Below, piece by piece: positions 8,049-27,241 of a DNA stretch of 38,007 bases. The stretch comes from a virus. Taxonomy: Duplodnaviria > Heunggongvirae > Uroviricota > Caudoviricetes. A program made the translations under genes and the position numbers. The stretch lies in the IMG/VR virus record IMGVR_UViG_2740892426_000005, one strand, 5' to 3'. The notes under the pieces were generated by a model that searched no databases, had not been told where the DNA came from, and worked only from the letters and a program-made list of their open reading frames with translations. The stretch's first letter is position 1; each line of letters begins with the position of its first letter.

Positions 8049-8492
8049 GAAATGTTGCCCCCAGGAGGATTCATTCTAATGGGGGCTAGTTTGGGCAACG
8101 AGTGAAACGAGGCGTAAGGTGGGTAATCATTTTGATAAGTGATCGCCCACTTTGTGCCAAAAGCGGACATCGCAGATATGACAATATGTTAGTCAACCGC
8201 GATTAGATCAGTCAGTTGGAGATGGGGGGAAGTTACAAAAACTTGTCGTCCGCCATCTCCGACTACGGGTATTCTTAACTGTACATGCTCTTTCAATCGA
8301 TGATTTTTGAGTAAGTGACTAACCTATTGTTTTGATAGTAATTAAACGTATAAACGTGCGGAGTTAATTTGAAAGTTATGTGTCTATGTTTGACAAGCAA
8401 AATTTTAAAGATTGGTTTTATCCACAGGTAATTTATGCTATTAATAGCCTCAAGCCCTGTAATTATTTTTATTTAAATGGATAAATTTGAAA

Positions 8493-10613
8493 ATGAGTAC
8501 ATATCATAATGATCAGCCAATACTAGGTGGTCAAAATGACCCCGATTTATTAAACAGGCTCGATTTTGCAAATCACTTGGCAAATATTCTACTATTAAAT
8601 CACAATGATGATTGCCTTACTGTATCTATAGAGGCAGAGTGGGGATATGGTAAAACGTCAGTGATAAATCTTATAAAAGGTGCTTTGAATGAAAAGGAGT
8701 TCTTACCAATAATAATAGAATATAATCCATGGCTGGCCGGTCAACCTGAATCCTTGATTCAGGATTTTTTATTACAGTTCTCTTCACAACTAAATATTAA
8801 AGACAATTCAAAAGCTGCTTTGGAAGCTTCAAAAGAATTAATTGCATACTCCAATCTCTTCAGTGTAGCAAAACTTATTCCAGGGACAGAACCTTGGGCA
8901 TCTATCATAGAAAAAGTCCTCTCTAATTTTGGGAGTGCTACTAAAAAGATTGCTGAATTAAAAAAACTGGATCTTTTAGGTAGAAAAAAACAAGTAGAGA
9001 AGGCAATAAAAAAAATAAAAAATCCTATTGTGGTAATAATTGATGATATTGATCGATTGACTCCTACAGAAACTTTTCAAGTTTTACGATTGGTTAAAGC
9101 TGTTGCAGATTTCTCAGGAACTTCTTTTTTACTTGCATTTGATCCTAATTATTTGATTTCTGTGCTTGATAAAAATAATATCGTCAATTCTTCGGAGTAT
9201 CTTAATAAAATTGTTCAACTTCGAGTCCCACTTCCTGTAATCTCAGAAAGGGGTATGAATGAACTTGCAAATGCAGAACTGGAAAAGATAGCTAATAAAT
9301 CTTTAACTGACAGATTCGAAAGTGATCAAGAAAGACTAAGCTGGATTTATCATAATTATTTTAAAAAGCTAATTAAGAATCCGAGAGAGTTAAAAAGATT
9401 TTTTAACCATTTGAGATTCGTTTTAGAGCAAATTGAAGGGCAGGTATGTTTTTCTGATCTCTTTGCTTTATCTCTGGTCGCCACTAAATCGAGTTTGGTA
9501 TACGAGCATATTAAAAGCACACCAGAGGCATATATAGGGAAGAGATTCACTAATGATGGCCTTTTGATGGATAAACCTCAAGATATTGTGGATAGATTTA
9601 GTGATGAGCGAAATAAGAAACTGAGTAATTTTTCTGATCAAGAGCGTTCAGTGATGCAGGAACTCTTAGGAGATATTTTCCCACTTCTACAGTCAAGCGG
9701 GTATTCTCATTATGGGGTTTCTGATCCCGATACAGCAGGAAGGGTTTCTGCACCACAAAGGCTTCATATTGCGTTTCATTATAAAACTCCAGCAGGGTAT
9801 ATTTCTGATCATGATATTATCAGTTTCATTAATGGAGATGTTAAAAGAAACGAATTTCTAAGAGATGTGCTCTCGCAAAATGCAGAAGAAAGATTTTTTG
9901 AAATGATGAATAATTATTCGAGTTATTGTAAGGATAATAGTTTTGAAATATTAACGTGTATTTATGATACTTTTCTGTTTTCTCAAGAATTGAAATCCTC
10001 ATTGGAAAGAAACTATGGTTTTTTGACAAAAGATCTTTATAGAAGGATGAATTGGCTCACTAATAAGGTAATATCTGAAAGTGATGATAAATATGGGTTG
10101 ATAAAGGGGGTTGTAGGTAGGCATGAGAATGCGCCACTTGGTGCAGACGTATTATGCCAAGCTCGTAAACAGATTCAAAATGGATGGAATGACAAAATAT
10201 GGGTTAGTATTGAAGAATTGGCTGAACTTGAAGGTATCTTTCAACAGGTGGCTATTAAAGTTTTAAGTGATAAAATATATTTTGATTATCATCTTGAATC
10301 TCATATATTTTTCGAATTAAAGAGAGTTTCATCTCAATTTACATCAGAGTTTATTGCTTCTGTATTATCAAGTGATGGCCTGATTAGGATGTGTGAGATT
10401 ATTGGTGAAACAGGTAGTGATTCAACAAATGGCCCTTATTTTAAGTTTGATGAAATTTACTTCGGGGAAATACTTGATGTGAATGAACTTCGAAATAAAG
10501 CGAAAAATTTAGATTTTTCAATTTATCCCACACGCATTCAAGCTGTACTTAAGAGTATTCTGGATGGACAAAAATATTATTTGAGAGATGCAACTGTTGG
10601 TGAAGATTGGTAA
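8493..10613 (+). CDS. KAP-family P-loop NTPase (706 aa), candidate accessory/defence gene
   Basis: Walker A in KAP context (EAEWGYGKTS), Walker B (VVIIDDIDR), long helical C-terminal region; AT-rich by eye. Start at ATG 8493; the ORF-track start at 8487 is a TTG. Confidence 0.7.
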   Translation: MSTYHNDQPILGGQNDPDLLNRLDFANHLANILLLNHNDDCLTVSIEAEWGYGKTSVINLIKGALNEKEFLPIIIEYNPWLAGQPESLIQDFLLQFSSQLNIKDNSKAALEASKELIAYSNLFSVAKLIPGTEPWASIIEKVLSNFGSATKKIAELKKLDLLGRKKQVEKAIKKIKNPIVVIIDDIDRLTPTETFQVLRLVKAVADFSGTSFLLAFDPNYLISVLDKNNIVNSSEYLNKIVQLRVPLPVISERGMNELANAELEKIANKSLTDRFESDQERLSWIYHNYFKKLIKNPRELKRFFNHLRFVLEQIEGQVCFSDLFALSLVATKSSLVYEHIKSTPEAYIGKRFTNDGLLMDKPQDIVDRFSDERNKKLSNFSDQERSVMQELLGDIFPLLQSSGYSHYGVSDPDTAGRVSAPQRLHIAFHYKTPAGYISDHDIISFINGDVKRNEFLRDVLSQNAEERFFEMMNNYSSYCKDNSFEILTCIYDTFLFSQELKSSLERNYGFLTKDLYRRMNWLTNKVISESDDKYGLIKGVVGRHENAPLGADVLCQARKQIQNGWNDKIWVSIEELAELEGIFQQVAIKVLSDKIYFDYHLESHIFFELKRVSSQFTSEFIASVLSSDGLIRMCEIIGETGSDSTNGPYFKFDEIYFGEILDVNELRNKAKNLDFSIYPTRIQAVLKSILDGQKYYLRDATVGEDW

Positions 10614-10729
10614 TACTTTTATAGGCATGCTTAGAGATGATGGAGTATCTTTTTCTCCCTTTTGAGGAAGTGATTTCCAACTGGGCATGGATGCCACATC
10701 AAATGGACAGTTGTTGTCACCTGTCAGTT

Positions 10730-10753
10730 AGCTGCTATTTGTTTATAGCAGCT
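10730..10753. other. perfect 9-bp stem-loop (AGCTGCTAT / ATAGCAGCT) downstream of the KAP gene
   Basis: Inverted repeat read directly; no flanking T-run, so not a canonical intrinsic terminator. Confidence 0.3.
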
Positions 10754-11057
10754 GAAAGCCCACTACATAGTTACACCAGAAGGAGTAACAATGTAGTGGA
10801 TAGCTAAATTTGACCACCTTAACAGATATGTTAATTTCCCCCCCCTCGCTCACAGCGGACTTTCATCTTTGTAAACCCTTATAATTCGCTTTTCAGCGGT
10901 CATTCAGATACGGATTTACGCTTTCCTTGGCAGTGCATGACTATGACGCATGAGATCGCATGATCGTTTGAGGATCGTTTTTGCTGAGGCCAGCCAGAAC
11001 TGGCGTGCTTTTGCTTATGTCATGCAGGTGCATGAAAACCACTACATAAAGTGGGCA

Positions 11058-11076
11058 GGCGTGGCGGGGATACGAT
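11058..11076. other. cos cohesive-end site GGCGTGGCGGGGATACGAT (P2/186-like)
   Basis: 16/19 match to the 186 cohesive end as I recall it (GGCGTGGCGGGGAAAGCAT); lies in the expected A-to-Q interval in a locally GC-richer patch. Confidence 0.6.
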
Positions 11077-11133
11077 TGCGCGCGCAAGCTAAAGTGGCAA
11101 TAATGAGCATGTAAGGTAAAATTCAAGGAGATT

Positions 11134-11250
11134 ATGATGTATATCTGCGAAAGTCACATTGTTGAATCAAATATAAAAACTAATTTTTTCGCAAAATATA
11201 CGAGGTATTTGTGCTTTTTGTTGTGCAGATACTGTTTGTTTAGATACTGA
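11134..11250 (+). CDS. 38-codon ORF with strong RBS (AAGGAG-N4-ATGATG), out of frame with the downstream RES ORF; possible frameshifted 5' end of that gene
   Basis: Read directly; overlaps the stop-free upstream extension (11177 onward) of the RES reading frame; T6 tract at 11184-11189 and T5 at 11215-11219. Confidence 0.35.
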   Translation: MMYICESHIVESNIKTNFFAKYTRYLCFLLCRYCLFRY

Positions 11251-11269
11251 TTCTTCAGAAGTACGTAAT

Positions 11270-12286
11270 TTGTTGAAAGCTATTCTGAGATATCATTATG
11301 ATGAAGTCGATTACAATACTCATTTTGGAGGGGAGTATTACCCGAGTTTTCTATTGGAAGATGATTTTATTTTCACCAAGGATATACAGGAGCATGATGA
11401 ATCTTTTGGGGAACTCGATAGCGAATTGTGGGATATGGCATTTGATAGTGAGGGAATAAATATTTATGCAGGCTATGGATCTGATGGTCTATATAATACG
11501 CCATATATGTCTATCAGAAATGCACATCAGCCATTTTTAGATTCTCTGTCAAAACAGCTTTCAGAAAAGAATTACCATGATTTTGAAGGTGAGCTAAGAA
11601 GTATTATAAAAGGTTATGGTGATATTTTTTCGAAGATAATAGAAGGAAGTTCTGTGGTATATAGAGCCAGAGTTGGGACTGCTGGCTATAAAACAGCACT
11701 TAGAGGATTTAGCCGTGAAGGAAAGAAAATATTTGTTCCATTTAAAGATAAGGAAATAGGAGCCGTGCCACCACTAAAGGCTACTGCTGGCAGGGCTAAT
11801 AGAGCAGGCGTTTCTTACCTTTATTGTGCTACAGATAGTTATACTGCAATTGCGGAAGTTCGACCTCATCCAACAGATGTGGTTTCAATTGGTAAATTTA
11901 GAGTTGCAAAAGCATTAAAGGTATTCGATTTTTCTTATCCTAATTTTTTAGAGTTTATTGAGAGTGATGAAAGTTTATTATCCATGATACCATATGCAAA
12001 GATGGCAGGTATTTTTAATACTGCAACTCCACCTTCCTTAGAAGGAAGATATAGTGTGTCCCAACTAATATCTGATTGTATAAGGAAAGAGGGGTATGAT
12101 GGTATACAATTTTCAAGTACAGTTGGTAAAGGTAAGAACTTGGTTGTTTTTAATCCTTCATGTATGGAATTTATAGATGGTTCATCAAAAGTAATAGAAA
12201 TTGACAAGGTTCAGTATATTTACGAGGAAAAGCAGGTTGTTGGTATGAATGATCAATGGGAGATTTATTACGATGAAGTTGAATAA
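11270..12286 (+). CDS. RES-domain protein with about 165-aa N-terminal extension (338 aa as called); candidate NAD-targeting toxin/abortive-infection effector
   Basis: RES signature residues in context: GRANRAGVSYLYCATDSYTAIAEV (Arg, Glu) and GYDGIQFSSTVGKGKNLVVF (Ser). The called start is TTG with a weak RBS; the frame is open from 11177; the first in-frame ATG is at 11435. AT-rich by eye. Confidence 0.6.
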   Translation: MLKAILRYHYDEVDYNTHFGGEYYPSFLLEDDFIFTKDIQEHDESFGELDSELWDMAFDSEGINIYAGYGSDGLYNTPYMSIRNAHQPFLDSLSKQLSEKNYHDFEGELRSIIKGYGDIFSKIIEGSSVVYRARVGTAGYKTALRGFSREGKKIFVPFKDKEIGAVPPLKATAGRANRAGVSYLYCATDSYTAIAEVRPHPTDVVSIGKFRVAKALKVFDFSYPNFLEFIESDESLLSMIPYAKMAGIFNTATPPSLEGRYSVSQLISDCIRKEGYDGIQFSSTVGKGKNLVVFNPSCMEFIDGSSKVIEIDKVQYIYEEKQVVGMNDQWEIYYDEVE

Positions 12287-12291
12287 GTGAT

Positions 12292-12329
12292 AATAGCCCC
12301 ATTGAGAATTTTCATTTCTCTTGGGGCTA
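12292..12329. terminator. stem-loop between convergent RES and Q genes (TAGCCCCA...TGGGGCTA with inner GAGAA/TTCTC)
   Basis: Inverted repeat read directly; no strong T-run, so function as a terminator is uncertain. Confidence 0.3.
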
Positions 12330-12338
12330 ACTTAAATA

Positions 12339-13370
12339 TTAATCAAAGCAATATGAATTGAATGTAATTAAATCTTCACCTAGCCAATCATTGACCTCCT
12401 CCATCCTTTTTTGTAAAGGTAGCAACTCGTTTCGAACAAACACATTAGCAGCCTTCTCCACATCCCCAAATCCCCCGAGATTATTTGGCATTATCCCCAT
12501 CATCTGTGGCGGCACGCGGTGTGCTGCCATCATGTCATCGCGACTAACATTTTTGATATTCAGAAATTCATCCTTCGCCGCGACTTCTGACAACGGGATA
12601 ATCTGAAGTCCGTCCTTTTTGCCGTTCGGCGAGTACATAAACAGGTTGCGGAAGTTGCCCGGACCTTTGGCGCTTTTCATCGCATTACGGAGGTTGTTCA
12701 CATCTTCCTGGTTCTGCGCGGCATCGGTCATGTACATGATGAAGCCTGCATGACTACCGTTAATGTAATACTTCCGGCGGAACAGCGTGGCGGACTCGTT
12801 GAGCAGGGCTGACGGAATGGCAGAAAGATAACCGGGCAGGCCGTAGATCTCCTGGTTGATATCCGGTTCCATCAGGTGAAAAATGCTGCCTTTCGTGAAC
12901 TGATACGGCTGTGTAGTCATGCCGTATTGCACAAACCAGTAGGTATCCAGGTCTAACCCGCGTCGGGTGTATTTTGCCAGCGCAGGCTCAAGGGCGATAA
13001 CTTCACCGAATCGGTTCGTGCGTTTCTCCAGGTAGGCGTTACCAAATACCAGATAGTCCTGCACAAAACGTGAAAAAGCCTGCTGGCTGAGCAGCGGGTG
13101 AGGGATGTAGGTACTGGTCAGAATGTTGCACTTTACTGCAATCGGGGAACTGTGATGCACTGCAGCGCGGAAGGTGCGCGCCAGTCCGTCAAAGCTGACG
13201 GGCGGCTCATACCAACGGTCCATCTGTACGCATTCCACATAGTCCAGTAATTCTCGGCGGTCCAGAACAGGAACGGGATCGCCGAAGCTGAATGCTTCGG
13301 CTGTAGTTTGACTTTTAAGCTGGATCTGTTTCGTCGCCGCAGCGCGGTTCTTCTTACTCTTTCCCATCAA
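12339..13370 (-). CDS. Q: portal protein (343 aa)
   Basis: P2 gpQ-like size and position; coupled to P (ATGA overlap). Confidence 0.9.
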   Translation of the reverse strand: MMGKSKKNRAAATKQIQLKSQTTAEAFSFGDPVPVLDRRELLDYVECVQMDRWYEPPVSFDGLARTFRAAVHHSSPIAVKCNILTSTYIPHPLLSQQAFSRFVQDYLVFGNAYLEKRTNRFGEVIALEPALAKYTRRGLDLDTYWFVQYGMTTQPYQFTKGSIFHLMEPDINQEIYGLPGYLSAIPSALLNESATLFRRKYYINGSHAGFIMYMTDAAQNQEDVNNLRNAMKSAKGPGNFRNLFMYSPNGKKDGLQIIPLSEVAAKDEFLNIKNVSRDDMMAAHRVPPQMMGIMPNNLGGFGDVEKAANVFVRNELLPLQKRMEEVNDWLGEDLITFNSYCFD

Positions 13371-15133
13371 AAAATCTCCACAATATTGCTGGTATTGGCG
13401 GATTCGCCCTGCAGCGGTTCGTTAAACAGTGCGTGCATCGTTGCCCAGGCCAGATCGGCGTGGCTGGCTTCTTCGCTGCGGCTGGCTTCATAGGTCGGGC
13501 GGTTGCCACTGGCGGTGGTGGCGCGACGGATTGCCATGAATGACTGCGCAATGTCGGTGTGCCCGGCGTCAAACTCCAGACGGTGGTGGCTGATAATGTC
13601 GTAGGCCTTGAGTACCAGAGCGTTTTTAACGTTGGGGTTGTAGACAAACTCCCGGACGGCTGGAAAAAACGCTTTCACGTTCTCGTAAACCCCGTGGCCG
13701 ACACCTGTCGAGTCGATGCCGATGTAGGTCACGTTGTACTGCTCGGTCAGTTTTTTGATGGCGTCAGCCTGGGCGCGGAAGTCCATGCCGCGCCACTGGT
13801 GACGCTCAAGAATGCGGAACTTACCACCAGGCACGGCTGGCGGTGCCACCACCACGCATCCGGCGCTGTCGCCGTTTTGCGTACCTTTTGCCGGGTCATA
13901 ACCGATCCACACTTCGCGCCAGCCAAACGGGCGCAGAGCCAGTGCATGAAAGTCGGTCCAGACTTCCCAGCTGTCCACCATGCACGCCTGCAGCTCGCTG
14001 AGCGGAAACACGGACGCGAGATCGTCCACAAACTCGCACATCAGCAGGTTCTGGTATTCGTCCGGGCTGTACTCCATGCGTAGCTGGTCGAGGTCGAACA
14101 GGTTACAGCCGCCGCGCACCGCATCTTCCACGGTGACTATCTGGCGGTATTGCCCGTCTGCGCACAGCAGGCCGGGGGCCAGATTGCTGTGGGACAGGTC
14201 GATGTCCACCTTGTCGGCTTTGTTGCGCCCACGGTTGAACAGCGCACCGGACCAGAACGGATAAGCACTGTGTGTCAGACTGGATGGCGTGGAAAAATAG
14301 GTCTGTCGCCATTTTTTGTGAATAGCCATACCGGAAGCCACTTTGTGCAGCTCCTGGAATTTCGGTATCCAGAAATATTCATCCAGATACAGGTTGCCGT
14401 GATAACTCTGGGCCGTGCGGGCATTGGTGCCGAGGAAGTAAAGCGTGGCTCCGTTAGGAAGCATCATCGGATCGCCTTTCAGCTCCACCTCGACTTCTTT
14501 GGCGAAGTCTATGATGTACTGCTTAAAGACGTGAGCCTGTGCCTTACTGGCAGAAAGGAAAATCTGGTTACGTCCGGTAAGCAGGGCGTCAATCAGGGCT
14601 TCACGGGCAAAGTAAAAGGTCGCGCCGATCTGGCGTGACTTCAGCAGGTTGCGGATGCGGTTGTTTTTTCCGGCTTCCCACCAGTGGCGCTGGTAGTTGA
14701 ACATGGAGGAATGGAAAATTTCTTCCAGCTTCTCAATCTGTTCATCGGTGAAAACATTCTTTTCCGGCTGACGGCGTGGGCCTTTATTGCGGTTGGTGAC
14801 GTTAGGGTTTAAGTCGGCTTCGTTGCCGCCATTGTTAAACTTGCCGATCCGCGCGTGGCGCTCAGACTGGCGCGCCAGCAGGTCAATCTCTTTGAAATCT
14901 TTCCCTTCTTTGTGCTCCTTCATAATGAGCTGGCAGTAGCGTGCGGCGGTGGTGAGCTGCATCTGATCCAGCGGCCCATAGTCACCCCACTTGTCGCGTT
15001 TTTTCCAGCTGTGAACGGTTGCAACTTTCTCGCCCAGCATTTCAGCAATGCGGGCGACGCGGTATCCCTGAAAGTACAGCAGCATGGCCTGCCGACGGGG
15101 ATCGAGATCTGCGGGTGTCAGTGTGGTGTTCAT
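13367..15133 (-). CDS. P: terminase large (ATPase) subunit (588 aa)
   Basis: P2 gpP-like size and position adjacent to portal and divergent from O. Confidence 0.9.
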   Translation of the reverse strand: MNTTLTPADLDPRRQAMLLYFQGYRVARIAEMLGEKVATVHSWKKRDKWGDYGPLDQMQLTTAARYCQLIMKEHKEGKDFKEIDLLARQSERHARIGKFNNGGNEADLNPNVTNRNKGPRRQPEKNVFTDEQIEKLEEIFHSSMFNYQRHWWEAGKNNRIRNLLKSRQIGATFYFAREALIDALLTGRNQIFLSASKAQAHVFKQYIIDFAKEVEVELKGDPMMLPNGATLYFLGTNARTAQSYHGNLYLDEYFWIPKFQELHKVASGMAIHKKWRQTYFSTPSSLTHSAYPFWSGALFNRGRNKADKVDIDLSHSNLAPGLLCADGQYRQIVTVEDAVRGGCNLFDLDQLRMEYSPDEYQNLLMCEFVDDLASVFPLSELQACMVDSWEVWTDFHALALRPFGWREVWIGYDPAKGTQNGDSAGCVVVAPPAVPGGKFRILERHQWRGMDFRAQADAIKKLTEQYNVTYIGIDSTGVGHGVYENVKAFFPAVREFVYNPNVKNALVLKAYDIISHHRLEFDAGHTDIAQSFMAIRRATTASGNRPTYEASRSEEASHADLAWATMHALFNEPLQGESANTSNIVEIF

Positions 15134-18604: not shown

Positions 18605-18820
18605 ATGACGCTTGAGCGAATCAGCGCCTTTATCACGTATTGCATCGCCGTCGTGCTGGCCTGGCTGGGCGATTTGTCCATCAAGGATGCCTCAACGCTG
18701 GGCGGCCTGATGATTGGTGTGCTGATGCTGGCTATCAACTGGTACTACAAACACAAAGCCTACCAGCTTCTGCGTGACGGGCAGATCTCGCGGGAGGACT
18801 ATGAATCCATCAATCGTTAA
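18605..18820 (+). CDS. holin (71 aa)
   Basis: Two hydrophobic segments and a charged C-terminus; immediately upstream of the endolysin. Confidence 0.65.
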   Translation: MTLERISAFITYCIAVVLAWLGDLSIKDASTLGGLMIGVLMLAINWYYKHKAYQLLRDGQISREDYESINR

Positions 18821-19691
18821 ACGCTGCCTTGTCGGGGCCGTGCTGGCTATTGCTGCCATGCTGCCGGGTTTTCAGCAGCTTCACACCTCCGTGGAAGGGC
18901 TGAAACTGATTGCCGATTACGAAGGTTGTCGCCTGCAGCCGTATCAGTGCAGCGCGGGTGTCTGGACCGACGGCATTGGTAATACGTCGGGCGTCATTCC
19001 CGGCAAAACCATTACGGAGCGACAGGCAGCAGAAGGGCTGATCTCCAACGTGCTGCGTGTGGAGCGGGCGCTGGAAAGGTGTGTGAAGCAACAGCCGCCG
19101 CAGAAGGTGTATGACGCTGCGGTGTCGTTTGCCTTCAACGTGGGTACGGGCAATGCCTGCAGTTCCACGCTGGTGAAATTGCTCAATCAGCGGCGCTGGG
19201 CGGATGCGTGCCGACAGTTGCCGCGCTGGGTTTATGTAAAAGGTGTGTTTAATCAGGGGCTGGATAACCGCCGTGCGCGGGAGATGGCCTGTGTTTACAG
19301 GGAGCAAACTGAAATGAATAAGAAATTAATCAGCGGACTGTTTCTGATGTTATGGATGGTGCTGTTAATCGCAGCAATGGTGTATCCGCAGGGGATTTTT
19401 CCGGTACTGGCAGCGTCCGGCGTTTGGGTAGCCTGTTTGCTGACATGGGCGGTAATTCCGGTAGCACTGGCTGCGTTAATTAAGAATGGCCCGCTCTGGC
19501 AGGAGTTAAGGGCATCTTTGCTGAAGACAATTACCCGAAAAGAAAACGTATTTATCAGTTGGGTGATGCGATTGCTGATTGTTGTAAGTCTCGCCTGGAC
19601 GGGGTGGGCTATTACCCTGGTCTTTTATCTACTGACCGTTATTGCCTTCTGGATCACCCGTAATCAGATGGCGCAACAGGTAGCAGCATGA
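18801..19691 (+). CDS. SAR-endolysin (lysozyme domain, about residues 1-171) continuing in-frame without a stop into a LysA-like multi-TM domain (296 aa as one ORF)
   Basis: GGGAGGA RBS before ATG 18801; N-terminal SAR-like hydrophobic stretch and lysozyme motifs (GVWTDGIGNT...FNVGTGN); no stop codon before 19689. Confidence 0.7.
   Translation: MNPSIVKRCLVGAVLAIAAMLPGFQQLHTSVEGLKLIADYEGCRLQPYQCSAGVWTDGIGNTSGVIPGKTITERQAAEGLISNVLRVERALERCVKQQPPQKVYDAAVSFAFNVGTGNACSSTLVKLLNQRRWADACRQLPRWVYVKGVFNQGLDNRRAREMACVYREQTEMNKKLISGLFLMLWMVLLIAAMVYPQGIFPVLAASGVWVACLLTWAVIPVALAALIKNGPLWQELRASLLKTITRKENVFISWVMRLLIVVSLAWTGWAITLVFYLLTVIAFWITRNQMAQQVAA
19314..19691 (+). CDS. lysA: LysA-like membrane protein (125 aa) if translated from the internal ATG
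   Basis: Internal ATG at 19314 preceded by GGGAG; 3-4 predicted TM helices; P2 has a separate lysA at this position. Confidence 0.4.
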   Translation: MNKKLISGLFLMLWMVLLIAAMVYPQGIFPVLAASGVWVACLLTWAVIPVALAALIKNGPLWQELRASLLKTITRKENVFISWVMRLLIVVSLAWTGWAITLVFYLLTVIAFWITRNQMAQQVAA

Positions 19692-24361: not shown

Positions 24362-25863
24362 GCACAAAATTTTATACCCTGCTGACGGATATTGGCGCGG
24401 CGAAACTTGCCAGCGCCGCCGCGCTCGGTGTGCCGCTAAAAATTACCCATATGGCGGTGGGCGATGGCGGCGGAGCATTGCCGACGCCGGACGCAAAGCA
24501 GACGGCACTGGTAAATGAGAAACGCCGGGCTGCGCTGAATATGCTCTATATCGACCCGCAGAACAGCAGCCAGATTATTGCTGAACAGGTGATCCCTGAA
24601 AACGAGGGCGGTTGGTGGATACGTGAAGTGGGCCTGTTTGATGAGTCAGGGGCATTGATTGCCGTGGGGAACTGCCCGGAAAGCTATAAACCGCAACTGG
24701 CTGAAGGCAGCGGGCGTACCCAGACCGTGCGCATGGTGCTGATTACCAGCAGCACGGACAATATCACCCTGAAAATCGACCCTGCCGTAGTGCTGGCAAC
24801 CCGCAAGTATGTGGATGACAAGGTACTGGAGCTGAAGGTGTACGTGGATGATCAGATGGCAAAACATCTTGCCGCACCGGACCCGCATTCACAGTATGCA
24901 CCCAAAGAAAGTCCGACGTTTACCGGGACACCAAAAGCGCCAACGCCAGCGGCAGGGAATAACACCACGCAGGTTGCGACCACCGCGTTTGTTCAGGCGG
25001 CACTGACGGCCCTGATTAATGGTGCGCCAGCCACGCTGGACACGCTGAAAGAATTAGCCGCAGCCATTAACAATGATCCGAAATTCAGTACCACCATTAA
25101 CAATGCGCTGGCACTGAAAGCGCCGCTGTCAAGTCCGGCACTCACCGGAACGCCAACAGCCCCCACTGCCGCACAGTCGGTTAACAATACACAGATTGCC
25201 ACCACGGCTTTTGTGAAATCGGCAATTGCAGCAATGGTGGGGTCAGCACCTGCTGCACTGGATACACTGAACGAACTGGCGGCGGCACTGGGGAATGATC
25301 CGAACTTTGCCACGACAATGCTTAATGCGCTGGCAGGTAAACAACCGCTGGACAATACGCTGACTAATTTGAGTGGAAAGGATGTCGCTGGTCTTCTCTC
25401 ATACCTTGGTTTGGGCGAAGGTGCTCCAGCTATTGGTGTTCCGTTCTTCTGGCCGTCCGCCGCAATGCCAGATACCGTAATCGACAGCTGGTCCGGCATG
25501 GTGTTTTTGAAGTTCAACGGCGCGAAATTCTCTGCCACTGATTACCCTGCGCTGGCGAAAGTGTTTCCTTCGCTGGTATTACCTGAAGCCCGCGGTGATT
25601 TCATTCGTATCTGGGATGACGGTCGAGGGGCGGACAGTGGGCGAGCATTATTAAGCTGGCAGGCAGCAACATCTTTATCGCAATTTGGCGGTAATTATCC
25701 AGAAGGGTCCGGTCATGCGATTGCTGATTACGATGGAATATCAGCACACCAGCCAGGTTTCTCTCGATTTCAGTACACCAGTAACTCAGTAGGAGATGGT
25801 GTTAATTTTATTGCCGTCAGACCGCGAAATATTGCATTTAACTTTCTGGTGAGGGCTAAATAA
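24358..25863 (+). CDS. H: tail fibre protein H (501 aa); C-terminal about 151 aa lie inside the invertible segment
   Basis: Conserved P2 H-like N-terminus; repeated Gln/Thr-rich ...QVATTAFV... motifs; a cix-like site is embedded at codons 346-354. Confidence 0.85.
   Translation: MSTKFYTLLTDIGAAKLASAAALGVPLKITHMAVGDGGGALPTPDAKQTALVNEKRRAALNMLYIDPQNSSQIIAEQVIPENEGGWWIREVGLFDESGALIAVGNCPESYKPQLAEGSGRTQTVRMVLITSSTDNITLKIDPAVVLATRKYVDDKVLELKVYVDDQMAKHLAAPDPHSQYAPKESPTFTGTPKAPTPAAGNNTTQVATTAFVQAALTALINGAPATLDTLKELAAAINNDPKFSTTINNALALKAPLSSPALTGTPTAPTAAQSVNNTQIATTAFVKSAIAAMVGSAPAALDTLNELAAALGNDPNFATTMLNALAGKQPLDNTLTNLSGKDVAGLLSYLGLGEGAPAIGVPFFWPSAAMPDTVIDSWSGMVFLKFNGAKFSATDYPALAKVFPSLVLPEARGDFIRIWDDGRGADSGRALLSWQAATSLSQFGGNYPEGSGHAIADYDGISAHQPGFSRFQYTSNSVGDGVNFIAVRPRNIAFNFLVRAK
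25394..25419. repeat. cix/gix/hix-like inversion site 1 (TTCTCTCATACC-TT-GGTTTGGGCGAA)
   Basis: 26-bp site resembling the Hin/Gin/Cin crossover consensus; inverted relative to site 2; encodes SYLGLGE at the constant/variable junction of H. Confidence 0.6.
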
Positions 25864-26456
25864 TGAAACCTGTTTTTGATGAAAATGGGCTGGCTACAGT
25901 GCCGGGCGATATGCGTTGTTTTTATTATAATGCAGTAACGTATGAATATACCGGCTGGTCTGATGAATATATTAATACTGGCGTAAGTATGCCCGCCTGT
26001 TCCACTGGTATTGACCCGAGCGAAAACATTCCGGGAAAAGTGGCAGTATTTACGGGTAAGGGATGGAGCCATGAAGAAGACCATCGCAATGAGACCGTTT
26101 ACTCAACTGAAAATGGCGCAGCTGTTACAGTGGATTATATCGGTGCCATCAAAGACGGTTATGTCACGCTTTCACCGTTAACGCCATACGATAAATGGGA
26201 TGGTGAGAAATGGGTGACGGATACCGAGGCACAGCATAGCGCCGCAGTAGAAGCGGCAGAAGCACAGCGCCAGTCGCTGATTGATGCTGCAATGGCTTCC
26301 ATCAGTCTGATTCAACTGAAATTACAGGCCGGGCGGAAGCTGACGCAGCCAGAAAACACCCGACTTAACGCTGTGCTGGATTATATTGACGCGGTGACGG
26401 CAACAGATACCAGCACAGCGCCGGACGTCATCTGGCCTGAACTGCCGGAGGCGTAG
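25863..26456 (+). CDS. G: tail fibre assembly protein (197 aa), currently expressed orientation
   Basis: Tfa-like; 1-nt overlap with H stop. Confidence 0.8.
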   Translation: MKPVFDENGLATVPGDMRCFYYNAVTYEYTGWSDEYINTGVSMPACSTGIDPSENIPGKVAVFTGKGWSHEEDHRNETVYSTENGAAVTVDYIGAIKDGYVTLSPLTPYDKWDGEKWVTDTEAQHSAAVEAAEAQRQSLIDAAMASISLIQLKLQAGRKLTQPENTRLNAVLDYIDAVTATDTSTAPDVIWPELPEA

Positions 26457-26868
26457 GCCATTCAATATCTGGCGCACCGGAAGTATCGACCAGCTCCAGT
26501 GCGTCCAGATAATCCAGCCACAAATTATATTGCGCCAGTTCCTCACCTTTCAGGCGACCAATCGCCGCTTTACCAGGCCATTGCTTACTGTTTATGTATT
26601 CGTTGACCTGATTAATCAATTGCTGCTTTTCCAGTTCGGCTGCGGCAATTTGTTCCTCATGAGTTGGCGGTGGAATATCAATCCATGCAGGCATTCCGTC
26701 GATGACACCTCTGTATTTTCCTTCTGGTGCTTCCTTCATAAATTCGGCGGCAACAGTGTCGTCAATTTCGATTCCATCACCGGGCCATTCGCCGGATTCC
26801 TGATAAGCGATTTTAAGCTCCACAGGGAAAAACGCATTTTTATCGGCACTGAAAATATATTTCTGCAT
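26428..26868 (-). CDS. alternative tail fibre assembly protein (146 aa), silent orientation
   Basis: Tfa-like on the opposite strand inside the invertible segment; convergent 29-nt overlap with G. Confidence 0.75.
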   Translation of the reverse strand: MQKYIFSADKNAFFPVELKIAYQESGEWPGDGIEIDDTVAAEFMKEAPEGKYRGVIDGMPAWIDIPPPTHEEQIAAAELEKQQLINQVNEYINSKQWPGKAAIGRLKGEELAQYNLWLDYLDALELVDTSGAPDIEWPTPPAVQAR

Positions 26869-26870
26869 TT

Positions 26871-27227
26871 CTACCGTCCTATCGAAATATAACTGAATCT
26901 GTATTGCTGTGAGATATCACTGGTTGCCACACGCCACGCTGAATTACTGATATGTTCAAAATTTACAGACAAAACCTGCAGGGCAGGATTCGACGGGTCT
27001 GACTGAACGGCATCAGACATAACACTGACTGAAACCATCGGCTGATTAGGGAATGGTATAGGGAAGTGTCCACTGATAAAGCGGGTCGTGTTTCCTGAAA
27101 AAGTGCCAAACTGAACAATATATCCACCTGGTAGCCTGAACCATCCCGAACCAGAAGCGAATGCTCCCATATCCGGTATCTGATTATCTCCTGTGCCCAC
27201 ATCCCTTTTCGCCGCTTCTCCTAAACC
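26871..27227 (-). CDS. promoterless alternative tail-fibre C-terminal cassette (about 118 aa), fused to H only after inversion
   Basis: Minus-strand reading from site 2 begins GLGEAAKRD..., matching the GLGEG... junction of the current H; the ORF-track start at 27269 lies beyond the crossover site and is not a real start. Confidence 0.65.
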   Translation of the reverse strand, partial: GLGEAAKRDVGTGDNQIPDMGAFASGSGWFRLPGGYIVQFGTFSGNTTRFISGHFPIPFPNQPMVSVSVMSDAVQSDPSNPALQVLSVNFEHISNSAWRVATSDISQQYRFSYISIGR

Positions 27228-27241
27228 AACGTTTAAGAAAA
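27216..27241. repeat. cix/gix/hix-like inversion site 2 (TTCTCCTAAACC-AA-CGTTTAAGAAAA)
   Basis: Reverse complement TTTTCTTAAACG-TT-GGTTTAGGAGAA matches site 1 in 10/12 right-arm positions with the same central TT; about 55 nt upstream of the invertase gene. Confidence 0.6.

Follow-up and report, generated by a model that had tools for sequence, protein, structure and literature searches.

RES-domain toxins and the cargo slots of P2-like prophages

Among described systems, the best structural match to the RES protein analysed here is MbcT (Rv1989c; 6fkg), the NAD+ phosphorylase toxin of the M. tuberculosis MbcTA system, which is matched with a Foldseek E value of 2e-5 and a target-normalised TM-score of 0.55-0.58. 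MbcT is a protein of about 180 aa that is neutralised by the adjacent MbcA, whereas the RES protein comprises 384 aa, has no antitoxin-like neighbour and carries an extra N-terminal extension of about 210 residues that includes a predicted zinc-knuckle module. The Xre-RES system of P. putida (6gw6/9r35) and ParST (6d0h) also have the RES fold in common with this protein; both are type II toxin-antitoxin systems, but no Xre or DUF2384 gene lies upstream of the RES gene described here. Because an antitoxin-type neighbour is lacking, the gene falls outside the Xre-RES/MbcTA type II toxin-antitoxin class, although the toxin fold is still common to both. A further described element, HEPN/RES N-terminal domain 1 (PF18870), has the N-terminal Cxx[CH]…CxxC pattern in common with the family and is matched by three of 40 aligned members, the most distant ones, whereas the comparison with the E. 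coli RES protein does not reach E <=0.01.

A second point of comparison is positional. Rousset et al. (2022, PMC9122126) described the cos-proximal interval between gpA and gpQ as a hotspot for defence genes in P2-like phages, and the AT-rich RES gene likewise lies between gpA and gpQ next to cos, sharing its locus with a PifA-like KAP NTPase. The old and tin genes of P2 occupy the other side of cos, whereas the RES gene is on the Q side. Among P2 pseudogenes, those resembling defence genes are rare, at about 2% (2026 survey, PMC13586616), so that a frameshifted copy such as the one described below represents an uncommon but expected state. The third comparison is mutational: phase-variable contingency genes and slippage pseudogenes likewise carry an indel in a mononucleotide run of the 5' coding region, with a polymorphic tract length. 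Unlike in contingency genes, however, the A run of the RES gene is short and not conserved, and its OFF alleles are rare.

Genomic context of the RES gene

The window, that is, the whole 38,007-nt stretch of DNA analysed, is 99.98% identical to a P2-like prophage of strain K56-43-un, and its RES gene is P2-like prophage cargo flanked by cos on one side and the portal gene on the other (Table 1). The P2 cos junction aligns to window positions 11026-11083 with 78% identity (E 9e-9), and the space from cos to the portal gene Q, which in P2 measures only about 170 nt, is taken up here by the RES gene. The GC content of the gene is 34.5%, against 50.2% for the window. A two-gene system composed of the KAP NTPase and the RES protein was considered and rejected, since cos separates the two genes and the RES gene is not tied to this NTPase elsewhere, another one being present in NRZ14408 and none in 19KM2415N.

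In other hosts, the Proteus homologue follows ogr in a P2-like prophage, the Yersinia homologue lies beside a P2-like integrase, and the Flavobacterium homologue is located in an island with NERD, OLD-like, Mrr and DUF4238 genes; the homologues occur as solitary cargo, with neighbours that are unrelated from one homologue to the next. At the present locus no antitoxin-type neighbour (Xre, DUF2384/MbcA) is found, the 5' side being occupied by the cos region and a 54-codon ORF that has no significant Pfam match, only a sub-threshold one to Amidohydro_2. Additionally, PADLOC 2.0 returns no match for the RES protein, a literature search found no paper describing a Zn-knuckle/RES family as a defence system, and none of the INPHARED phages carries the RES gene, their matches being confined to a cos-proximal segment of about 155 nt.

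Table 1. Features of the RES locus and its surroundings, in window coordinates
Feature	Position	Strand	Basis or remark
PifA-like KAP-family NTPase	8487-10613		Other side of cos
cos-like site (GGCGTGGCGGGGATACGAT)	11058-11076	+	P2 cos junction alignment
AAGGAG Shine-Dalgarno sequence of the authentic RES start	11125-11130	+	Read from the sequence
5' fragment ORF, 38 codons	11134-11250	+	Start position equivalent to the CDS start of intact orthologues
C5 codon; H8 codon	11146-11148; 11155-11157	+	Predicted zinc ligands, in codons 1-15
A5 run, site of the 2-nt deletion	11175-11179	+	Junction alignment, whole-window comparison, tract census
3' part of the RES gene, shifted frame	11177-12286	+	Authentic residues 16-384 plus stop
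T6 tract, not the lesion	11184-11189	+	T6 in every allele, intact or frameshifted
C27 (11210-11212) and C30 (11219-11221) codons, second knuckle	11210-11221	+	Invariant in 40 homologues
T5 tract, not the lesion	11215-11219	+	T5 in every allele
Tandem TTGs	11270-11275	+	Gene-caller starts of the shortened ORF; L47 and L48 of the intact protein
RES domain (intact-protein residues 213-347)	11768-12172	+	Pfam PF08808, 66.9 bits vs cutoff 23.2
Portal gene Q	12339-13370	-	Gene list; convergent, 3' of RES
Terminase	13367-15133	-	Gene list

A 2-nt contraction divides the RES gene between two frames

The frame that encodes the RES domain contains a TAA at 11174-11176, is free of stops from 11177 until its terminator at 12284-12286, and reaches its first ATG at 11435, with no GTG before that position. 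The ORF-list call begins at TTG 11270 and gives a product of 338 aa (OAO48288.1), for which a 337-aa PGAP version also exists (WP_149024798.1); the 20 nt 5' of this TTG (ATTCTTCAGAAGTACGTAAT) contain no GGAG-like (Shine-Dalgarno-like) motif. Reading of the sequence agrees in this respect with the first-pass annotation, which had described an open frame from 11177, the lack of ATG or GTG before 11435 and a TTG start with a poor ribosome-binding site. That annotation had also recognised an AAGGAG motif followed by ATGATG at 11134; the motif and the start are confirmed, but the four-nucleotide spacer assigned to them is not, the ATGATG at 11134-11139 being separated from AAGGAG by 3 nt (ATT) to the ATG at 11134 and by 6 nt to the ATG at 11137. 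The 38-codon ORF opened by this start shares 74 nt (11177-11250) with the open RES frame, and the ORF, its overlap, the T6 and T5 tracts and the encoded Cys cluster CAFCCADTVC are all present as originally reported. At the 5' edge of the stop-free region sits the run of five A residues, which the first-pass annotation had overlooked and which is the lesion itself.

Comparison with intact alleles reveals the origin of this arrangement. A megablast search of the locus against complete E. coli genomes recovers the whole locus in six, and in all six the RES gene is one 1155-nt CDS (384 aa), named 'RES family NAD+ phosphorylase' in RefSeq, that starts at the equivalent of 11134. Five near-identical genomes encode WP_077758113.1, and the sixth encodes WP_233039108.1, a sister allele that is 82% identical. 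In the junction alignment the intact allele reads AATAT-AAAAAAA-CTAA and the window AATAT-AAAAA-CTAA, the A7 run being reduced to A5. Within the intact gene this run falls in codons 14-16 (ATA AAA AAA CTA), and it is both the longest homopolymer and the sole run of at least 7 nt. When the two A's are put back, the sequence encodes MMYICESHIVESNIKKLIFSQNIRGICAFCCADTVC…, an uninterrupted 384-aa protein. Measured against the K56-43-un prophage, the gene differs solely by A7 versus A5, the RES DNA being otherwise identical to the intact allele. The two-frame layout thus follows from one lesion relative to intact orthologues, and chance is not at issue; moreover, because no further change is found downstream of the lesion, the pseudogene is young.

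The fragments account for the intact protein in a simple manner. Codons 1-15 of the 38-codon ORF (MMYICESHIVESNIK) constitute the authentic N-terminus of the RES protein, and after the A run this ORF is out-of-frame read-through that ends in TGA, while the product of the 338-codon ORF corresponds to the intact protein from residue 47 onward. The authentic gene comprises 384 codons, or probably 383 when counted from the second ATG (11137), with which the single Met of most homologues aligns in an alignment of 40 sequences. The proposal that homologues might instead begin at the TTG or at the first ATG of the RES frame finds no parallel among them, since their starts correspond to the upstream ATG.

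The T6 and T5 tracts, to which an indel had first been assigned, were compared across about 20 alleles; an indel in either was rejected, both being unchanged in intact and frameshifted alleles alike. The earlier suggestion of a homopolymer indel that conceals a protein of about 380 aa from 11134 is therefore upheld for the indel and for the start (11134/11137), and it is replaced for the size (2 nt rather than 1 nt), the site (A7 to A5 rather than T6 or T5) and the cause, the lesion being recurrent rather than a sequencing error. The suggested comparison with homologous loci gives a single intact CDS from the 11134 equivalent, with constant T6 and T5 tracts.

On this evidence it is highly probable that the RES copy in the window is a frameshift pseudogene that arose by slippage in the longest homopolymer of the gene, its strong ribosome-binding site driving only a 38-residue peptide. 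Replication slippage would have removed two A's from codons 14-16, converting ATA AAA AAA to ATA AAA A. Ribosomes that initiate at the strong ribosome-binding site and ATG would then make only a 38-residue peptide of 15 authentic and 23 out-of-frame residues, and the 369 codons that follow, the undamaged RES catalytic domain among them, would be left in the +1 frame without an efficient start. Single-ORF orthologues with an upstream start, a single lesion and its independent recurrence are all found, as in a frameshift pseudogene. Of the three readings originally offered, a pseudogene best describes this copy, given the A7 to A5 lesion and the intact orthologues; the copy is most likely a recently inactivated one. 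The A7 run is a mutational hotspot, and an ordinary hotspot fits the data.

Recurrence and spread of the A5 allele

Outside an inverted tail-fibre segment, the window departs from the K56-43-un prophage by the A-run deletion, a G/C substitution at 12479 and a 1-nt deletion at 19291. Homopolymer indels are a classic error type, and this balance of two indels to about one substitution (one or two) relative to the closest complete relative is what a sequencing or assembly error might produce, in which case the strain would really carry A7 and an intact gene. Such an error is, however, hard to reconcile with the recurrence of the identical A5 allele in at least eight independent datasets at the assembly level, three of them NCBI assemblies and five of them SRA runs that were each assembled on their own, the named carriers being GCA_001651725.1, GCA_011881705.1, GCA_013339985.1, SRR29423798, SRR11426067, SRR11822874 and SRR30348651. 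The indel at 19291 is likewise reproduced, in at least 24 contigs. Furthermore, the 17 other homopolymers of at least 7 nt in the window all agree with K56-43-un (0/17 differ), and a 2-nt undercall recurring solely at the A7 run is implausible. An exact look-up also places the shortened products OAO48288.1 and WP_149024798.1 in public data already. Because A5 recurs in independent datasets, it is very unlikely to be a sequencing artefact, and the deletion appears to be a fixed mutation of one sub-lineage; that the strain in truth carries an intact gene is scarcely credible.

The contigs that carry A5 are identical to the window across the shared span (5.0-13.5 kb) and all carry 12479G, and the 1-nt deletion at 19291, in the lysozyme gene, is present in all four A5 loci that reach this position. 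The haplotype that combines 12479G with the 19291 deletion is common together with an intact A7 RES gene (loci L022-L026), which places A5 as the derived state, arising inside that haplotype. As the A5 copies are all on a single haplotype, only one mutational event can be counted for them. An A6 allele is found in ERR3831838 on the other haplotype (12479C, intact lysozyme); judged from this single Logan assembly, it would be an independent contraction of the same run, bringing the independent tract-length events seen to two (A5 in one lineage, A6 in one dataset). Among the listed cluster members, intact forms account for about 275 contigs and shortened forms for 9 (about 3%). Exact-pattern scans tolerant of tract length, run on viral, metagenome and genome contig collections, gave 0 matches and no extra alleles.

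Two further candidate variants were rejected. A 368-aa form of the sister allele had the appearance of a second N-terminal truncation, but its upstream ATG is intact, the change is an in-frame AAC-to-AAG, and the shorter length reflects a different start call. Cluster members of 383 aa, considered as delta-K revertants, are start-site or substitution variants.

The predicted N-terminal zinc-knuckle module is divided by the lesion

A search of 5.8 billion proteins yields about 120 clusters, most of them aligning over the full length of the query, with sizes of about 380-390 aa; their taxonomic range runs from Enterobacteria to Flavobacterium, Pedobacter and Chryseobacterium. Among 40 aligned homologues, with identities as low as 23%, every sequence has C5, C27 and C30, and either H or C stands at position 8, whereas C31 and C36 are not conserved. 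The Cys cluster that had been taken as a clue is therefore informative in part, C27 and C30 being invariant across the family and C31 and C36 not. Paired Cxx[H/C]…CxxC motifs of this kind are typical of a zinc knuckle or ribbon. The AF2 model built on the 40-homologue alignment (pLDDT 92.6, pTM 0.87) places residues 1-40 in a small beta/alpha module with strands at 3-5, 24-27 and 33-38, followed by a helix at 42-55.

Mapped onto this model, the frameshift falls between the two predicted knuckles, with C5/H8 on one side and C27/C30 on the other, and the C27 and C30 codons now lie 3' of the frameshift and 5' of any usable start. The lesion would thus split the zinc-knuckle module and leave it missing from the TTG-initiated product, which starts at residue 47, inside the predicted helix 42-55, without any invariant zinc ligand. 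Loss of the invariant zinc ligands, together with the lack of a Shine-Dalgarno sequence before the TTG, points to loss of function in this copy.

The RES domain is preserved in the shifted frame

Pfam PF08808 is matched by 40/40 aligned homologues. The top Foldseek matches of the protein are MbcT (6fkg), Xre-RES (6gw6/9r35) and ParT (6d0h), with target-normalised TM-scores of 0.45-0.58, and the family profile gives no match to PDB sequences, so that the link to RES toxins comes solely by fold search. Specifically, R221, E242 and S329 are invariant in the 40 homologues, as are R178, R180, N223 and Y231, and all seven residues are kept in the shifted frame of the window. By their conservation, R221, E242 and S329 probably form the canonical R-E-S triad. 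The intact protein is accordingly best regarded as a putative stand-alone RES-domain protein of the NAD+-degrading type, with a presumed defence or NADase role, and as a candidate NAD+-depleting abortive-infection effector whose anti-phage role is suggested by its context.

Possible residual expression from the A5 allele

A rival reading is that active RES protein continues to be made from the A5 allele, either as an N-terminally truncated form by reinitiation at a TTG or as a near-full-length delta-K protein through +1 slippage at AAA-A (11176-11179) or at the T6 tract. The 38-codon ORF stops 20 nt before the TTGs at 11270/11273, the 369 downstream codons carry no further lesion, and AAA-A and TTT-TTC permit tRNA re-pairing in the +1 frame (tRNA-Lys on AAA-A). 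In addition, a moderately stable hairpin (11194-11241, -17.4 kcal/mol) begins 5 nt after T6. This hairpin is, however, marginal (z -1.88; 9/200 shuffles fold as well) and is also present in intact alleles that need no recoding. Neither TTG is preceded by a Shine-Dalgarno sequence, and their product would lack the invariant zinc ligands and begin within a predicted helix. All homologues are single ORFs, no conserved recoding signal is seen among them, and no slow codon or stop is found that would stimulate a +1 shift, nor an Rfam element: a search of 10600-12400 returned only chance-level snoRNA matches and no frameshift element. An active product of the A5 allele is quite unlikely.

Programmed ribosomal frameshifting was rejected, given that the two-frame organisation is not conserved, that an Rfam element is lacking and that the hairpin is marginal.

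Possible phase variation of the A run

Slipped-strand phase variation, the second of the readings originally offered, would make the A run a contingency tract through which a costly or toxic defence gene is switched reversibly ON (A7, A4) and OFF (A5, A6). The tract does lie near the 5' end of the coding sequence, at codons 14-16, and the gene is of a toxin type; three tract lengths, A5, A6 and A7, are represented on two haplotypes of prophages that are otherwise near-identical; and both known loss-of-function alleles affect the same 7 nt out of 1155. Against this, the tract is not conserved, the sister allele, at 82% identity, reading AAAAAC or AAAAAG in its place. By the standards of contingency tracts in mismatch-repair-proficient E. 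coli, seven A's make a short run, and the window holds 17 other runs of at least 7 nt. Furthermore, OFF alleles make up about 3% of the listed contigs, all A5 copies belong to one lineage, and no revertant, such as an in-frame A4 (delta-K) allele, is present among the listed cluster members. Reversible switching is therefore quite unlikely, ordinary slippage in the longest homopolymer remaining the preferred reading.

Annotation consequences and candidate function

As a frameshift pseudogene, the RES copy represents an event of an ordinary, already-annotated kind, with no unusual start mechanism. OAO48288.1 (338 aa) and WP_149024798.1 (337 aa), both named 'RES family NAD+ phosphorylase', represent parts of a frameshifted gene, and both entries need a pseudogene flag; functional work should use the 384-aa WP_077758113.1. 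The locus provides a concrete, datable case of in-situ inactivation of a candidate defence cargo gene in the P2-like hotspot. The intact Zn-knuckle plus RES family, which has no antitoxin partner and recurs in prophage cargo slots and defence islands, is a reasonable candidate for experiment. The annotation consequence and this uncharacterised family are the only parts worth carrying forward.

A bolder reading, which must be counted a long shot, combines two separate proposals: that the A run acts as a crude evolutionary off-switch for a costly prophage NADase effector and, independently, that the Zn-knuckle/RES family is an undescribed single-gene abortive-infection system. Under the first proposal, the gene would be shut down in sub-lineages by A5 and A6, +1 slippage (A5) or -1 slippage (A6) on the residual run may still supply small amounts of near-full-length protein, and a single further slip from A5 to A4, giving the in-frame delta-K form, could restore the gene. 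In the A6 allele, the site for -1 slippage reads A AAA AAC and is followed by TAA.

RES homologues as prophage cargo

The Zn-knuckle/RES homologues (loci L027-L033) are carried as solitary cargo at three different positions in P2-like prophages, and the Flavobacterium gene resides in an island that also holds NERD, OLD-like, Mrr and DUF4238 genes. Their solitary occurrence at varied prophage positions, together with the Flavobacterium island, suggests that the Zn-knuckle/RES proteins are a candidate, undescribed single-gene defence family.

The KAP-family NTPase gene is a second cargo gene of the hotspot occupied by the RES gene, the cos-proximal gpA-to-gpQ interval. Its product matches the PADLOC PifA model strongly but partially (E 1e-64), through the first ~450 residues. 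In one dataset, ERR10430858, the gene carries an in-frame 9-nt deletion (9005-9013) inside a cluster of A7/A8 runs.

Features of the prophage and of related loci (window coordinates unless stated)
Feature	Position	Detail
KAP-family P-loop NTPase, 706-708 aa	8487-10613	PADLOC PifA model match
54-codon ORF	10950-11114	Labelled hypothetical in some genomes
cos-like site GGCGTGGCGGGGATACGAT	11058-11076	Aligned to P2 cohesive end GGCGAGGCGGGGAAAGCAC
1-nt deletion, GG to G	19291	Within ORF 18801-19691
Tail-fibre segment, inverted relative to strain K56-43-un	25394-27229	Aligns reversed, at 99.7% identity
A AAA AAC with TAA immediately after it	9891-9910 (locus coordinates, ERR3831838)	Residual run of the A6 allele
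Zn-knuckle/RES genes in P2-like prophages	E. coli: cos-Q; Proteus: after ogr; Yersinia: beside integrase	

The cos-proximal region and the RES reading frame

The 54-codon ORF is probably not a gene but non-coding packaging sequence; it overlaps a conserved cos-proximal segment shared by over 800 E. coli genomes and many P2-like phages. The RES ribosome-binding site starts ~50 nt past the cos-like site, so any RES promoter must be situated at cos or next to it; the stretch 11094-11122, upstream of the gene, holds a weak -35/-10 match. One homologue, P0019 (446 aa), has the region of the 54-codon ORF called as part of the RES protein, extending its N-terminus.

The A6 allele of the RES gene, seen in a single dataset (ERR3831838), forms a textbook -1 slippery heptamer with a stop codon, at which a -1 slip would bring back the correct RES frame.

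Variation elsewhere in the prophage

The deletion at 19291 falls in the P2-type lysozyme gene, seven codons from its 3' end, and joins this gene in frame with the LysA gene 3' of it, generating a 296-aa product; PGAP makes no lysozyme call in two assemblies. The deletion allele is widespread (48 index blocks; at least 24 contigs read), and it is older than the RES frameshift.

The tail-fibre segment, inverted relative to the nearly identical prophage of E. coli K56-43-un, adjoins a recombinase-family (invertase-type) gene, an arrangement like that of the P2/Mu-type host-range switch.
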